A stretch of 63,704 bases of DNA, the filler included, from Rozella allomycis CSF55 (taxonomy: Eukaryota), in assembly GCA_000442015.1 (NCBI GenBank). It is 21 parts of 21 records of this genome, joined end to end, with 100 filler letters (N's around TTAATTAATTAA, not from the genome) between each part and the next. Parts side by side here need not be neighbours in the genome. Positions count along the whole stretch, not along the records: positions 7,314 to 9,612 come from KE561254.1; 20 more parts are not named here. One strand, written 5' to 3'. Position 1 is the stretch's first letter. Every line of letters starts with the position of its first letter. This document shows positions 7,214 to 52,133 of the stretch, piece after piece. A program made the translations under genes and the position numbers. Below the pieces are notes generated by a model. The model saw only the letters and a program-made list of their open reading frames with translations. It did no database searches and was not told the DNA's origin.

Positions 7214-7313
7214 NNNNNNNNNNNNNNNNNNNNNNNNNNNNNNNNNNNNNNNNNNNNTTAATTAATTAANNNNNNNNNNNNNNNNNNNNNNNNNNNNNNN
7301 NNNNNNNNNNNNN

Positions 7314-9415
7314 TAGATTCATTATTTTCGACAAGAATTGGATTCATGATAGATAAAGCCTTTAATTGATTAAACCAAGGTTCATTTTCTAGAAAAGGTG
7401 TTACAATGGCCCCTTGGCATTTATCGGCCATTATTTTGTGGATTGTTTTCGTGATCAATTCTACTGGAACTTCAGCCCATACAATCTCATTTTTCCATGT
7501 TTTATTAAAACTATTCTTATCTGCTGTGTAGTATATGTTAATCTTATTGAAACCTGGTACTGTTAAGACTTCTAATGTGAAATGTTTATAATATTTTTGA
7601 ATCTTTTTGAAATTGTTATTTGATAGCAACCAATTAATTTCATTGATTGTTTGAACGGTCATAATGATTTGATTATCATCACTAATACTTAATGGATTGG
7701 AATCATATATTCGACTAGGTTTATCTGGTAAGATATTCAAGACTCCCGGCCGATGAATAATTTCAAAATCAAACTCTAACAAGATATCAATCCAATTATT
7801 CATCATAGCATTGACATGTTTTTGTGTAAAGAGATAAGATAGCGCGCGATGATCTGTTTAAAGTTTGAAGTGCACCCCGAATACATAGTTACGAAATTTG
7901 TCTAGCGCAAATATTATAGCCGATAATTCTCGCTTGGTCGCACTGTAGTTGCGTTCCCCTGCAGTCAATGCTCGTGAAGCAAAACAATTATACTGAATTT
8001 GATTATCATATTCCTGGTAAAGAACAGCACCTAGTCCTCTGTTTGATGCATCGGTAGCTATACAAAATGGATGGTTAAAGTCAGGATACTTCAAAATANA
8101 AATTTGATTATCATATTCCTGGTATAGAACAGAACCTAGTCCTCTGTTTGATACATCGGTAGCTATACAAAATGGATGGTTAAAGTCAGGATACTTCAAA
8201 ATAATCCGTTCCCACAGTATTCTACGTAGCTTCGCGTAAATATTTTCAAATTCTTTAGTCCATACAACGACTTTTGCTTTCTTAATTTATCAAGTGGTGC
8301 AGTTAAAGATGCATAATTTGGTATTAAATCTCTAAAATAATTAAAAAATCCCAATTGTTGTTCTATCATTTTTCCAGTTACTGGAGTTTTCCATTCATCC
8401 ATGATTAATAATTTTTCTGGTACCGCTTGAACTCCGTATTTGTTAATCTTAAAGCCTAAAATGTCTAGTTTCTCGTAAGCAAAACAACACTTTTCCAAGT
8501 TAATTTTCAATTTGATTTTGTTAAGTTCCTTAATGACAANTCCTAAAATGTCTAGTTCCTCGTATGCAAAACAACTCTTTTCCAAGTTAATTTTCAATTT
8601 GATTTTGTTAAGTTCCTTAATGACAATCTTTACATGTTCTAAATGTTCTTCGTAACTGTTAGAGAAAATAATTATATCATCGATATACTCATTCACAAAA
8701 GGAAACTTGCTAAGGTGTTTTGTCATAACCTTTTGAAATTCTGCGGGAATATTTTTGAACCCAAATGGTGCACCTTTAAAGATATATTGTTTTCCATTCC
8801 AAGTAAATGTAGTTTTAATTTGATCTTGCTGTTTTATTCTGAATTGATGAAAACCCGATTTAAGATCAATCTTGGTGAATACCTTCGCCCCTTTCAAAGA
8901 TTCTAAGATTTCTTTTATCAATGGAAGTGGATAGGTAATTGTTCTAGTGATTAGGTTGATGTGTCTCGGATCAAGACAAACTCTCCAGTCTTTTTGTTTT
9001 CCTGATATATCTTTTTTAGCAACAACCAATAACGAATAATTCCATTCCGAGTGACCTTTTAATTCTTTTATGAGCTTTGCTTCTTCCCATTTTTGAATTT
9101 GTTTGGTGACTATTGGACGCAGAGAGTGAGCTATTCTATATTGAGATTTAAATGCAGGTTTGTTGTCACCCGTTGCAATTTGAATTTCAGCATCTGGGAG
9201 AGTGCAAAAACCATTTATAGATTTGTTTGTATTTAAAAGAGGTTGAAGATGGTCAATCAAATATGTAGAGTATGCATCTGCTAAGAAGGAGAAATAGGTT
9301 GAAGTTGATTTATTGTCATCTAAGCTTTCGATGACTTTTGGAAAGGACGGTACAGGGCCTATGAATTTTGCTGGTGGAGTTTCGTCATTGGCCTGTTTGA
9401 TTTCCTTGATAGTTG
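7314..9415 (-). mobile_element. Ty3/Gypsy LTR-retrotransposon pol fragment (RT, RNase H, MTase-like domain), degenerate
   Basis: RT: WRVCLDPR, FTKIDLKSGFHQ, PFG, YIDD. RNase H: TDASNRGLGAVLYQ, NYSATKREL, TDHRAL. Frameshift near 8270 and in-frame TAA at 7858-7860. Confidence 0.92.
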
Positions 9416-9712
9416 NGTTTCACAAAGGCAGAAATGTTAAACACAACACGGAAGATTGCAAATCTTTGAAATACAAGAATCAGAAGTTGGAAAAAGCTAA
9501 AGAGAAAAATACTGACAAAGAANACAGATAATCATATCTTGATTATTGCCACGCCACTGTGCTATTTAAGCGTAATCAGATGAATAAAACCCTGGTTAAC
9601 TTTTAACGATTANNNNNNNNNNNNNNNNNNNNNNNNNNNNNNNNNNNNNNNNNNNNTTAATTAATTAANNNNNNNNNNNNNNNNNNNNNNNNNNNNNNNN
9701 NNNNNNNNNNNN

Positions 9713-27561: not shown

Positions 27562-28627
27562 TCAATTTATTCTAGAACAAAGATTTGGATCAACTCGCGT
27601 ATCTTTAAGCCATGTATTAACAACATCAATGTGCCCATTTAACAGTGCACCACGAATAGCAAAATTATCTTTATAGGTGGGGTCTATTCTTGGGTCATTA
27701 ATCAACATCTCTATTATTTCAGTGTCACCATCCTCTGATGCCTTTATTATCATTTTATGGTCATTAAATGCAGGATAACTTTACTACTTTTGTATGGCCA
27801 TTGATCCAAGCTTTTCTTATAGCATAATTGTTTTGAATGAAGGATCAATTCTCTTGTCATTAATCAACAACTTTATTGTTTCAACATCCCCCTTTTCTGA
27901 TGCTCTCTTAACCATCGCATGAAAATCAAAACTAGGATCAACTCTAGCATCCTGCAACCACAACTTTACAATCTCTCTGTGTCCATTCAACCACGCCTTT
28001 CTTATCGCATAGTTATTGTCATATCCTGGATTTATTCTTGGATCATTTATTAACAATTTCACAATCTCAATTTCACTATTTTCAGATGCTTTTTTAACCA
28101 TCAAATGATAGCTAAATCCTGGGTTCACCCTCTTATCTTGGAGCCACAGCTTTACAATCTCAGTATGTCCGTTCAACCATGCAGTACGAATAGCATAATG
28201 GTTGTCACAAGTCGGGTCAATTTTGGGATGATTAATTAATAATCGAACAACATTTGATTGACCATCTGCTGACGCCTTTTTAACCATGACATGATAATTG
28301 AAACTCGGATCAACTCTTCCATCACAAAGTAATAATTTCACAACTTCAATATGTCCATTCTGCCATGCCTTTCTTATGGCATAATTATTACTATGCGCTG
28401 GGTCTATTCTTGAATCATTAACTAGTAACTTTACAATCTCTATGTTTCCTTCTTCAGAAGCCTTTTTAACCATAATATTATAATTAAAACTGGGATCAAC
28501 CCTCTCATCTTCAAGTAAAACCTTTACAACATCCACATGATTTTCTCTAAATGCCCATTCAATCGCATAATTATTATTTGCAGCGGGATTAACCTTTTCA
28601 TTTGCGATAAGCAATTTAACTATTTCA
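27562..28627 (-). CDS. Ankyrin-repeat protein with alternating repeat types; frameshift near 27800; 5' truncated
   Basis: DPxxxNNYAIRKAWxNGH repeats alternate with DPSFNYxxMVKKASExG repeats. Confidence 0.85.
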
Positions 28628-28821
28628 NNNNNNNNNNNNNNNNNNNNNNNNNNNNNNNNNNNNNNNNNNNNTTAATTAATTAANNNNNNNNNNNNNNNNN
28701 NNNNNNNNNNNNNNNNNNNNNNNNNNNTATTCCTTGCCTTTATTCTTTACTTGTGCATCAACTTTCTTTCTTTATTCATTATTTTTGAAAACCCATTTTT
28801 GGAAATCCGCAATTTCAAAAA

Positions 28822-48692: not shown

Positions 48693-50874
48693 TCATTTTC
48701 TCGTTTGGTGTCTACGCAACATTTCTACAACCTTCGCATTACCGAAACAGGAAGCCCAACGAATAGCATAATTGTCATCTGCACTTGGATCAACTCTAGA
48801 ATCTTCAGACAAAATTTTCACAATATCAGCATGGCCGTTTCTGGAAGCCCAACGAATACAATAATTGTCATATGCACTTGGATCTACTCTAGCATCTGCC
48901 AGAAGAATTTTAACAATATCTGCATAACCGTACACGGATGCACATTGAATAGCATAATTGTCATCTGCACTTGGATCTACCCTAACATCTGCCAGTAAAA
49001 TTTTGAAAACATCTATGTGGCCAAAATGGGCAGCCCGACGAATAGCATAATTGTCGTCTGCACTTGGATCTACTCTAGAATCTTCAAGCAAAATTTTCAC
49101 AACATCTGCATGACCGTTTTCGGAAGCCCGACGAATAGCATAATTGTCGCCTGCACTTGGATCTACTCTAGAATCTTCAAGCAAAATTTTCACAACATCT
49201 GCATGACCGTTTTCGGAAGCCCGAAGAATAGCAAAATTGCCACGTGCACTTGGATCTACTCTAGAATCTTCAAGCAAAATTTTCACAATATCAGCATAGC
49301 CTTTTTCGGAAGCTCGGCGAATAGCACGATTTTGTTTAACACTTGGATCAACTCTAGAATCTTCAAGTAAAATTTTAACAGTATCTGCATGACCGTACTC
49401 GGAAGCATGTTGAATAGCATAATTGTNAATAATTGTCATCTGCACTTGGATCCACTCTAGAATCTTCAAGCAAAAATTTCACAATATCTGCATGGCCATT
49501 ACTGGAAGCAAACCGAATAGCATAATTGTCATCTGCACTTGGATCGACTCCTGACTTCGTCAAANCTGCAAGTAGAATTTTAACAATATCTGCATGACCG
49601 TTCTCGGATCGACGTCGAATAGCGAAATTGCCACGTGCACTTGGATCTACTCTAGAATCTTCAAGCAAAATTTTCACAACATCTGCATAACCGTTTTCGG
49701 AAGCCCGAAGAATAGCAAAATTGCCACGTGCACTTGGATCTACTCTAGAATCTTCAAGCAAAATTTTCACAATATCAGCATAGCCTTTTTCGGAAGCCCG
49801 GCGAATAGAATAATTGTCATCTGCACTTGGATCTACTCTATAATCTTCAAGTAAAATTTTAACAGTATCTGCATGACCGTACTCGGAAGCATGTTGAATA
49901 GCATCTGCAAGTAGAATTTTAACAATATCTGCATGACCGTTCTCGGATCGACGTCGAATAGCGAAATTGCCACGTGCACTTGGATCTACTCTAGAATCTT
50001 CAAGCAAAATTTTCACAACATCTGCATGACCGTACTCGGAAGCCCGAAGAATAGCAAAATTGCCACGTGCACTTGGATCTACTCTAGAATCTTCAAGCAA
50101 AATTTTCACAATATCAGCATAGCCTTTTTCGGAAGCCCGGCGAATAGCATAATTGTCATCTGCACTTGGATCTACTCTATAATCTTCAAGTAAAATTTTC
50201 ACAATATCAGCATAGCCTTTTTCGGAAGCTCGGCGAATAGCACGATTTTGTTTAACACTTGGATCAACTCTAGAATCTTCAAGTAAAATTTTAACAGTAT
50301 CTGCATGACCGTACTCGGAAGCATGTTGAATAGCATAATTGTCATCTGCACTTGGATCGACTCCTGACTTCGTCAAATAATATTTAAAAGGCTTGCTTTG
50401 TCCATTTCTGAGAGATAGTCCTATTGGAAAGTTCCTATCTGCCAAAGGCTCTGGTTTAATATCTTCATCCTCAACACTACAGAGCTTCCGTTTACAACTT
50501 ATCTTCATCACCATGCATTGTAATATATGCAAAAGTCCGTATTGACATGCGAATTGAAAAGCATAGTTAGCAGCATTCTGAGATAAATCGTTTTGTTTCA
50601 TAAAGTTTATAAAACTAACGAACCTTTTAATGTAACCGATCTTGTTAAGGATATCCGAGCACATATCTTTCGTTAACATTTTCCCGCATATGTGTTTGAT
50701 TAGATATTGAATAACATATGGACATTTCCATGAGCTAATGAATTCTGGAGCTTGATGAAGGATCAAGTCAAAGCATAGAGAGCGAATCTGACGTGATGTT
50801 CTAGACATTTCTTTCACATCATTTAGGCTTAATTGCGACAAAATTACCAGCCAAATCTCATTTGGGTAGTGCAT
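48693..50874 (-). CDS. F-box + ankyrin-repeat protein (repeat number unreliable because of N junctions)
   Basis: N-terminal YPNEIWLVILSQLSLNDVKEMSRTSRQIRSLC; many 34-aa repeats RVDPSADDNYAIRRASENGHADVVKILLEDS. Confidence 0.85.
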
Positions 50875-52133
50875 TTTCCAANGTAGACAAAAATGTAAAG
50901 TTGGTTGCTGTAGTAGCATTTGCAGCATCCAGCAATGTCAATGTCAATGAGTAAACTCTTCTATCATCTCTTCTAGGCGGAATAATATTTCCAAATTCAT
51001 CAGTTTCTTTAATTAGCAATGTCCCGCTTGACTGTGATGTCATTCTNAGGTTTCCTTTTCCTTGGTTAAAATTACCCAACTGATTGCCCATTTTCTACAA
51101 AAAAGACTTTATACTTCAAATATAATATTAAAATTAAAGAAACTGAGGAATAATAATATGTAAATGTAAATCAATGTAATGTCAATTTTCTATTGATTAT
51201 CAAATTTGAATGGGCTGTTCATAATTGCCCATATCGATCCAATTATTTTGTCATTTTTGAATTGAATTTCTTGGTAAAATTTATAGTTATCAGGTCAANG
51301 TGTCAATTTTCTATTGTTATCAAATTTGAATGATCGATCCAATTATTTTGTCATTTTTGAAGTTCTTGGTACAATATGTAGTTACCTTTCTTCTATTTGT
51401 AGGAATTAGGGTCACTGGTCAGTGCCATTTTCAGGTCAATATTCTCATCTTGGGTATTCGATCCTTTTACCTTTATCTTGTTTAACACAGTCAATTTCTT
51501 TTTATTCTTTGGGGTAGGGGACGTAACAAAAATTATCCCATAAGCTTGGCGATTGAACATCTTTGATCTGGATCACAAACATTTTCATAAATTGTGGATT
51601 CTTGAATCCTTCTCACAAAGACATCGTCTTTTCTGTTTTGTCCAAAATATAGAAAACTTAACTATTACAATCTTTTACACCTCCAATCGACTAATTTTTT
51701 TATCATAAATTTAGTCGATTCTTCAAGTCGGAATCCAACTTCTAATAGTTTCTATCACTTGGTGACTGGTGTATGGTTACATATTTTGCCAGCCCACAAA
51801 GACTCTTTAATAAGCGCCACTTTAAAGATCTTGTATGGGCGAATTTTTTTTAAAAAAAAGACAAATTCAAACTACACTAAATAGTGTATATTAAGACTCT
51901 CGAGTCTCCTTTATGCCAAGCAGGCAAGCATTTGCCTGTTTTGTTTGTTCTCGATTTACTTTTGCGTCTGTAAATAACATTTTTTGGGTCTAAAGTGTTG
52001 GAAGTGAAAGAGTTAGCAATCCGGCTGCTCTCANNNNNNNNNNNNNNNNNNNNNNNNNNNNNNNNNNNNNNNNNNNNTTAATTAATTAANNNNNNNNNNN
52101 NNNNNNNNNNNNNNNNNNNNNNNNNNNNNNNNN

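Follow-up and report, generated by a model that had tools for sequence, protein, structure and literature searches.

Dam-like domains in eukaryotic retroelements

Until May 2026 the Dam-like domains of eukaryotic mobile elements had been placed, in two published accounts (PMC3783388, PMC6338049), in DIRS elements only, and the first of these gives the order reverse transcriptase (RT), RNase H (RH) and methyltransferase (MT) as the textbook order of the DIRS pol gene. A bioRxiv preprint of that month (Fernandez-Moreno et al., 10.64898/2026.05.21.726589) then described DAM-LTRs, which are Ty3/Gypsy-like and chromovirus-like long terminal repeat (LTR) elements with Dam domains, and called them the first report of such domains in non-DIRS LTR elements. 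Here we describe a retroelement fragment in a stretch of 63,704 nucleotides (the window) from the assembly of Rozella allomycis CSF55 (GCA_000442015.1), in which an RT and an RNase H of the Ty3/Gypsy type are followed by a degenerate Dam-like domain. The fragment is most probably what is left, in a truncated state, of a chromovirus-related Ty3/Gypsy LTR element with ordinary protease/RT/RNase H/DDE-integrase replication and with a captured Dam domain of the DIRS type placed between its RNase H and its integrase. Given that reading, we think it likely from the aligned motifs that in this lineage the domain has lost its methyltransferase activity.

The main text of the preprint distinguishes five DAM-LTR lineages, in green algae, in green algae together with an ochrophyte, in ichthyosporeans, in a red alga and in Euglena; its screen used hmmsearch at E≤1e-5. 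It reports that Asn-Pro-Pro is conserved in almost all of the domains, that methylation assays in E. coli were negative, and that N6-methyladenine (6mA) is enriched on DAM-LTRs, and it links repeated capture to 6mA-marked, permissive chromatin; a hepadnavirus-like Dam case is also mentioned, and the words 'fungi', 'fungal', 'Copia' and 'inactive' have no occurrence in that main text. The RT-RH-Dam architecture of the Rozella fragment, which the preliminary description of this DNA had put forward as that of a chimeric retrotransposon, is thus not new, being already described there for DAM-LTRs.

The element and its reading frames

The element lies on the minus strand of a contig piece at 7314–9612 (KE561254.1), between linkers at 7214–7313 and 9613–9712, and is truncated at both ends. 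It comprises three stop-to-stop open reading frames (ORFs) on that strand: a 407-aa RT frame (8196–9419), a 142-aa RNase H frame (7858–8286), and a 181-aa frame (7315–7857) that runs into the linker at 7313. The order is RT, RNase H, Dam-like domain, with the tail of the RNase H and the Dam-like domain sharing the last of these frames. The 181-codon frame contains no stops, where the other five frames have 9–28, and an open frame of this length occurred in none of 20000 composition-preserving shuffles of 181 codons at 30.8% G+C.

The RT (with the motif YIDD) and its connection extend over 8287–9419 (minus strand), as part of the ORF at 8196–9419, which matches Pfam RVT_1 at E 3.4e-30; the RT is 49% identical to that of the database protein P0001 over 238 columns. 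The RNase H directly follows the RT (7858–8286, minus strand) and is of the Ty3/Gypsy type, with the motif NYSATKREL and matches to Pfam RT_RNaseH_2 (E 9.7e-39) and RT_RNaseH (E 1.7e-28). Its C-terminal end (TDHRAL...HRPGVLNILPD; tail TDHRAL...FEIIHRPGVLNILPD) lies beyond a stop, at 7723–7857 on the same strand (Pfam RT_RNaseH, residues 1–29), and is 57% identical to the tail of the Gypsy element P0004. A linker at 7642–7722 (minus strand), placed by alignment and by low predicted local distance difference test (pLDDT) values at residues 1–14 of the model described below, joins this tail to the Dam-like domain. The peptides that had been quoted in the preliminary description, in frame with the end of the RNase H, are all present in the 181-codon frame on the minus strand, and its assignment of RT and RNase H to the Gypsy type agrees with the RVT_1 and RT_RNaseH_2 matches and with the position of the RT in the trees below.

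A Dam-like domain where the integrase zinc finger normally starts

The Dam-like domain (7315–7641, minus strand; Pfam family PF05869, of the DIRS 'MT' type) comprises 109 aa, spanning NWLLSNNNFKKIQ... to ...PWFNQLKALSIMNPILVENNES, and runs into the contig end at the N linker at 7313; it is recognized by a sub-threshold Pfam match, by independent profiles, and by an AlphaFold2 model with its matches to phage folds. The Pfam match aligns frame residues 76–149 with profile positions 12–87 of 169. We built two profiles without the window sequence, so as to avoid circularity. With the first, which comprises 14 Dam domains of relatives that bear an integrase, the window domain scores 88.6 bits, with a best of 6.3 among 200 shuffles; with the second, of 15 DIRS-like Dam domains, it scores 57.0 bits, with a best of 8.8 among 200 shuffles. 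The DIRS-like set consists of 15 RT-Dam proteins without protease and integrase, one of which is named as a decapod crab protein. These scores back the weak Pfam match, and they bear out the claim that a DIRS-type domain stands after the RNase H at the place where an integrase zinc finger would normally begin.

The AlphaFold2 model of the domain, made from a 15-row alignment, has a pLDDT of 80.7 and a predicted TM-score (pTM) of 0.73. In a Foldseek search of predicted viral structures (BFVD) there were two matches at E≤0.001, and among the top 16 the ten rows that have a name are all DNA (N6-adenine) methyltransferases of phages (E 1.4e-5 to 1e-2; TMq 0.60–0.67 for nine of the ten). Comparison by VIA-align with 48161 solved chains places PCIF1 (6irx) first (Z 9.2, root-mean-square deviation 2.6, 115 residues), followed among others by T4 Dam (Z 7.6) and EcoDam (Z 7.1), against a background for this tool of Z 7–8; nearly all of the top 50 are class I methyltransferases. 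The predicted fold is that of a class I methyltransferase of the phage Dam type.

Architecture of the relatives

A phmmer search of 1.84 billion representatives with the 181-aa frame gave 1090 proteins at E≤0.001, most of which match the RNase H tail only. P0001 matches the full query (E 5.8e-33, query residues 1–176), and further whole-query matches are P0014–P0018, P0021, P0022, P0025, P0052, P0111, P0132 and P0143; in these relatives the matching stretch reaches or comes near the Pfam Dam cut-off, with a best E of 2.4e-14. Domain scans of 20 proteins revealed the order RT (where present), RH, Dam and rve in ten of them (P0001, P0002, P0014–P0017, P0025, P0052, P0132 and P0143). H2C2 is found in nine of these ten and a chromodomain in six, and a protease lies upstream in most, where the N-terminus is present. 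A tyrosine recombinase (Phage_integrase) is found in none of the 20 scanned proteins, and wherever a relative matches all 181 aa and continues beyond them, it has rve and no tyrosine recombinase. P0178 is a further Dam-H2C2-rve-Chromo case. As to whether an integrase or a recombinase would follow the domain, which the preliminary description had posed as a check, the ten relatives point to the integrase, as they continue from RH-Dam into H2C2/rve; in the window itself no integrase is visible.

In two relatives, P0004 and P0040, RNase H and the integrase zinc finger are only 53–56 aa apart and have no Dam-like insert between them. Both relatives fall inside the RT clade of the window (see below), and the Dam insert has thus been gained or lost within that clade.

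Some Dam-like domains were seen in other settings. P0191 is a 1598-aa polyprotein of the Ty1/Copia type (Pol_BBD, rve, SH3_retrovirus, RVT_2) with a Dam-like domain between integrase and RT (Pfam E 2.2e-5, and 82 bits to a profile built in this analysis); P0203 has a Dam domain N-terminal of protease-RT-RNase H; and P0187 combines an RT, a match to the hepadnavirus-type DNA_pol_viral_C, and Dam. Faint Pfam PCIF1_WW matches occur in three DIRS-like relatives.

Gypsy or DIRS affinity of the reverse transcriptase

Since RT-RH-MT alone is the normal order for DIRS, it is the affinity of the RT and the nature of the downstream enzyme that decide between the two kinds of element. Against Gypsy-type proteins the window RT scores 160–338 bits, the two highest values being those for P0016 (338) and P0004 (308); against the DIRS-like candidates, which are RT-Dam proteins without integrase, it scores 12–55 bits. 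In a careful maximum likelihood tree of 35 RT rows, nine DIRS-like and 26 Gypsy-type sequences are split at 100/100, and the window falls in a 98/96 clade with P0001, P0002, P0016 and P0019, which have Dam, and with P0004 and P0040, which lack it; the DIRS-like group leaves out the window in 100% of 200 bootstrap trees. A quick tree of 61 RT rows agrees (97* and 98* sets). Nesting of the window inside the DIRS-like crown, a group picked for the approximately unbiased (AU) test after the tree was seen, is rejected (delta log-likelihood, lnL, 48.7; p-AU 0.00027). The RNase H points the same way, with the window matching Gypsy-type Pfam families at E 1e-39 and the DIRS-like set matching them weakly or not at all. 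The check by RT phylogeny that had been proposed came out on the side of a Gypsy-type element, with the window in the 98/96 Gypsy clade and placement in the DIRS-like crown rejected.

A number of results weigh on the other side of this interpretation. The contig stops 109 aa into the Dam-like domain, and when seven relatives were compared with the window by tblastn the only match was at 7318–9410, with no integrase, protease, gag, chromodomain or LTR visible. The Pfam Dam match itself is sub-threshold (E 1.1e-4; 22.4 bits against a gathering cut-off of 28.1 bits), and a profile search of PDB sequences returned only spurious rows for Chk1 (E 0.015) and YafQ. The methyltransferase fold that had been expected is found by Foldseek in BFVD and by VIA-align, both matching N6-adenine methyltransferases, but not by Foldseek in the PDB, where nothing reached E≤0.001 (best 0.13). 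A scan of metagenomes gave 32 loci, none of which matches the Dam profile, and no full-length copy was recovered; in all of these loci but L003 (query residues 1–131, 24% identity) the match is confined to the RNase H tail. The Dam tree is poorly resolved, with the window in no starred set. In the AU test, placing the window together with all of the DIRS-like RTs lowers the lnL by only 0.86 and is not rejected (p 0.46), and with the 61-row quick tree the constrained search was 22.5 lnL units better. We attribute both results to a DIRS stem of 3.8 units, which attaches to the window branch almost freely, and to a weak free search; the tree alone leaves room for a sister relation between the window and the DIRS-like RTs.

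That placement, the textbook DIRS order of the domains (PMC3783388), and the fact that the window ends before any integrase is visible are what could be said for a fragment of a DIRS1-like (tyrosine-recombinase) retrotransposon with nothing chimeric about it. We regard such an origin as very improbable, given the disparity between Gypsy-type and DIRS-like scores for both RT and RNase H, the membership of the window in a well-supported clade with integrase-bearing elements, its exclusion from the DIRS-like group in every bootstrap tree, the rejection of nesting in the crown, and the rve domains of the whole-query relatives.

Two further searches can be noted here. When the Dam region of P0132 was used in a word-based search, it found only itself and one near-copy. 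The nearest Atlas clusters score 0.84–0.85, under the 0.9 level, and are commonest in Mucoromycota, with very few recorded members, and we treat them as a lead only.

The RNase H–Dam junction in other read sets

Seven sequencing runs in four studies, with no RNA run listed, contain window sequence. For comparison with the window we used contigs (not reads) of public runs, of which X1 and X7 carry one organism label (A) and X5 and X6 another (B). The junction between RNase H and the Dam-like domain is crossed by single contigs in each of these four runs (7314–8048 in X1, 7498–8048 in X7, 7565–8026 in X5 and 7452–8083 in X6), which come from two organism labels and at least three studies. Two of the runs have contigs that extend past 7314, record 16 of X6 by 1714 nt and record 9 of X5 by 547 nt.

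These contigs bear directly on the possibility that the junction is a chimera of a Gypsy element with a DIRS one, made during assembly, the assembly being of low quality and stitched from reads. Signs of such stitching are plain in this contig. A duplication of 105 nt (8049–8153) surrounds the single n at 8099 and is skipped by the X1 and X7 contigs (8048>8154), and around the single n at 8540 there is another of 87 nt (8454–8576), which is skipped at 8453>8541 in X1 and at 8489>8577 in X5 and X7, with repeated peptide text visible in the translation across 8454–8576; in both cases the two copies are alike except for a few differences. As the duplicated text is skipped in the contigs of other runs, we take the single n's of the assembly to mark read joins. 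Beyond 9416 there are in addition mis-joins. The stretch 9417–9612 is made up of two short pieces, attached through single n's at 9416 and 9523. Several runs show loose ends at 9415/9418 and 9522/9525, and these pieces probably do not represent the true upstream sequence of the element; in all four runs the segment at 9470–9612 exceeds the remainder of the contig 20–60 times in word depth, and we take it for a high-copy sequence without relation to the element that was attached to it in assembly.

The stretch from 7314 to 8098, however, contains no n, the junction within it is found in single contigs of four other runs, and ten independent relatives have the same junction in one ORF. An assembly chimera at the junction is thus extremely improbable, and the chimeric join that had been named as a possible refutation is not seen in these contigs.

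The copy in the window is itself dead, as it carries both a stop and a frameshift. The stop is an in-frame TAA inside the RNase H ('HFKL*TDH', 7858–7860, minus strand, seen in the translation), and the frameshift, at 8277 on the same strand, separates the RT frame from the RNase H frame, which appear as two overlapping ORFs. Neither lesion is present in the label A contigs. Position 7858 is an A in X1 (268.7/268.7) and X7 (430.1/430.1), changing TAA to TAT (Tyr, as in P0002), and one extra T behind 8277 in X1 (340.7/340.7) and X7 (440.2/440.2) brings the RT into frame with the RNase H. X5 and X6 retain the stop of the window at 7858–7860; X5 also has the window form at 8277 (0/32.9), where X6 is without cover. 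We have classified 38 differences from the window, with eight more not shown. Those confined to label A comprise 13 synonymous and ten non-synonymous changes, and those confined to label B comprise no synonymous and seven non-synonymous changes, including two new stops, both being counts from contigs and small numbers. Label A shows only two changes in the Dam region; both are synonymous and both are in the 7314–8048 contig of X1. X7 has neither of them, and no listed contig of that run covers 7391–7497.

In contigs of X1 (depth 149), X7 (256) and X6 (4) position 7339 is also connected through 'AG' to 9248, and the 1908 nt in between are missing. This join removes most of the RT, the RNase H and the Dam-like domain, and its shorter-side flank is only 26 nt; it may come from an abundant derivative of the element with an internal deletion.

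Loss of motifs and divergence of the domain

In N6-adenine methyltransferases a side chain of the (D/N)PP(Y/F/W) motif contacts the target adenine. We compared this motif (motif IV) and the D-x-F-A motif among 29 aligned relatives, 15 of them DIRS-like and 14 integrase-linked. Of these relatives, 28 have D-x-F-A, and the window has L-E-V-L-T (7561–7575, minus strand, for which E-V-L-T-V is also given) at the position of D-x-F-A-[ST]. The Pro-Pro of motif IV is present in 27 of the 29, and the window has E-V-P-V (7462–7473, minus strand) at the position of (N/F/H/C)-P-P-(W/F/Y). It is the most degenerate of all of the aligned rows, with the hydrophobic and Trp/Pro framework kept. At the EVPV site the X1 contig is unchanged (7462–7473), X7 is uninformative, and X5 and X6 have a P>L change.

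The first residue of motif IV is less constant than the prolines. Among the 15 DIRS-like domains it is Phe in nine, Asn in three, Cys in two and His in one, F-P-P-F being the commonest form; among the 14 integrase-linked domains it is Asn in eight, Phe in five, His in one and Cys in none, such that N-P-P is found in eight of the 14 LTR-type relatives. These counts suggest that DIRS 'MT' domains may in many cases be something other than canonical enzymes. Because the Asn is missing from many apparently intact relatives, its absence alone is weaker evidence of inactivity, and a non-canonical activity may survive in the window domain. The stronger argument lies in the loss, in the window, of the Pro-Pro-aromatic part together with D-x-F-A. 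The preliminary description had judged the domain probably inactive from the loss of NPPF; that loss is real and is found also in copies of other read sets, and the loss of the Asn by itself says less than had been assumed.

The domain has also diverged faster than the RT to which it is joined. The ratio of Dam to RT identity is 0.50–0.72 between the window and six members of its clade, against 0.88–1.14 for nine other pairs at similar RT identity; P0016 against P0001 and P0002 (the F-P/A-P-T subgroup) gives 0.57–0.63. The end branch of the window is 1.85 in the Dam tree against a median of 0.67, and 0.74–0.86 in the RT trees against medians of 0.8–0.9. It is the replacement of both of the best-conserved motifs, along with about twice the divergence expected from the RT, that leads us to suppose that the domain no longer methylates.

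The opposite proposal, that the domain still methylates adenine through an active site of non-canonical form, placing 6mA on element cDNA or on insertions as the preprint proposes for DAM-LTRs, draws on the frame that is open across 181 codons, on the purely synonymous changes of label A in the Dam region (two, both in X1), on the confidently predicted fold (pLDDT 80.7), and on the relatives that likewise lack the Asn. We think it improbable, with V-P and E-V-L-T in the window where nearly all of the relatives have Pro-Pro and D-x-F-A, and with the domain diverging at an accelerated rate relative to the RT; moreover, in the assays described in the preprint, canonical eukaryotic Dam domains gave no rise of 6mA in E. 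coli (10.64898/2026.05.21.726589).

Proposed history of the element

We suggest that the full element would transpose by the ordinary protease/RT/RNase H/DDE-integrase route. The Dam-like domain might be a relaxed remnant heading for loss, as two relatives in the RT clade are without such a domain; alternatively, it could be a non-catalytic structural or nucleic-acid-binding module retained in the polyprotein. The role in binding or targeting that the preliminary description had raised is speculative. A more specific proposal would make it a pseudo-enzyme under selection in a chromovirus-related DAM-LTR lineage of an early-diverging (Mucoromycota-like) fungus, where it would bind nucleic acid or 6mA-marked chromatin, or recruit the 6mA writer of the host, and would not itself methylate DNA. 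We consider this rather unlikely; if true, it would extend DAM-LTRs to fungi.

Sequence context

The window consists of 21 small contigs with 20 linkers between them, all of 100 nt and identical (44 N, TTAATTAATTAA, 44 N), and the N-run map shows 17 single n's in addition. Since the contigs are merely joined by linkers, gene neighborhoods across them are meaningless. There is no second copy or other part of such an element within the window, and a search of the whole window against Rfam gave no matches, 9470–9612 included. Other ORFs that contain X, such as that at 49375–50937, may carry the same kind of single-n duplication.

Several contigs contain arrays of ankyrin-like repeats of about 33 aa (...DPSADDNYAIRRASENGHADIVKILLEDSRV...), at 2047–2430, 27817–28671 and 48693–50937 on the minus strand, apparently representing a large host gene family. 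The neighboring contig (9713–12691, minus strand) has an open frame of 803 aa that ends in a low-complexity repeat rich in E-G-G-V / G-K-E-N; this frame has a strong G/C skew and is unrelated to the retroelement.

Comparison with known systems

The likeness of the window domain to phage N6-adenine methyltransferases lies in the predicted fold, as found by Foldseek in BFVD; it differs from them in covering only about positions 12–87 of the 169 in the profile, in having no (D/N)PP(Y/F/W), and in being inside a retroelement polyprotein. The cap-specific adenosine N6-methyltransferase PCIF1/CAPAM (6irx) is the best structural match to the model among solved chains, but the sequence identity is 12% and the resemblance is at the level of the fold only, with a Z just above the background of the tool.

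Among retroelements, the DIRS1-like elements share a domain of the same family, standing directly after RNase H (57.0 bits to their profile; Pfam Dam PF05869, as in the account given in PMC3783388). DIRS elements, however, lack a protease and a DDE integrase and use a tyrosine recombinase, whereas the RT and RNase H of the window and the integrase of its relatives are of the Gypsy type. The ordinary chromoviruses and Ty3/Gypsy elements without Dam, represented by P0004 and P0040, belong to the same RT clade and, in the case of P0004, have the similar RNase H tail described above, and they differ in passing from RNase H to the integrase zinc finger without the insert.

The closest system is that of the DAM-LTRs. 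Like them, the window combines RT and RNase H of the Ty3/Gypsy type with a Dam domain (PF05869) encoded within the pol ORF, and its relatives, with H2C2/rve and often a chromodomain, resemble the chromovirus-like chlorophyte clade of the preprint. It departs from them at motif IV, where the window has E-V-P and its nearest relatives F-P-P or F-A-P against the Asn-Pro-Pro of the preprint, and its Pfam E of 1.1e-4 would fail the screen at 1e-5 described there. Fungi do not figure in the main text of the preprint, and the single lead on the taxon of the window is to Mucoromycota. The contribution of the window is modest, since the copy is truncated, dead, and in a poor assembly. What it adds is a lineage whose captured Dam domain has lost both conserved motifs with its frame still open, close RT relatives that have no Dam domain, and possibly a fungal host. 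Such a degenerate domain bears on whether a captured Dam domain acts as an enzyme at all, the same question that is raised by the negative E. coli assays of the preprint and by the Phe that replaces Asn in nine of the 15 DIRS-like domains; those counts (Phe in nine, Asn in three) are at odds with the near-universal Asn-Pro-Pro that the preprint reports for the domains it describes.

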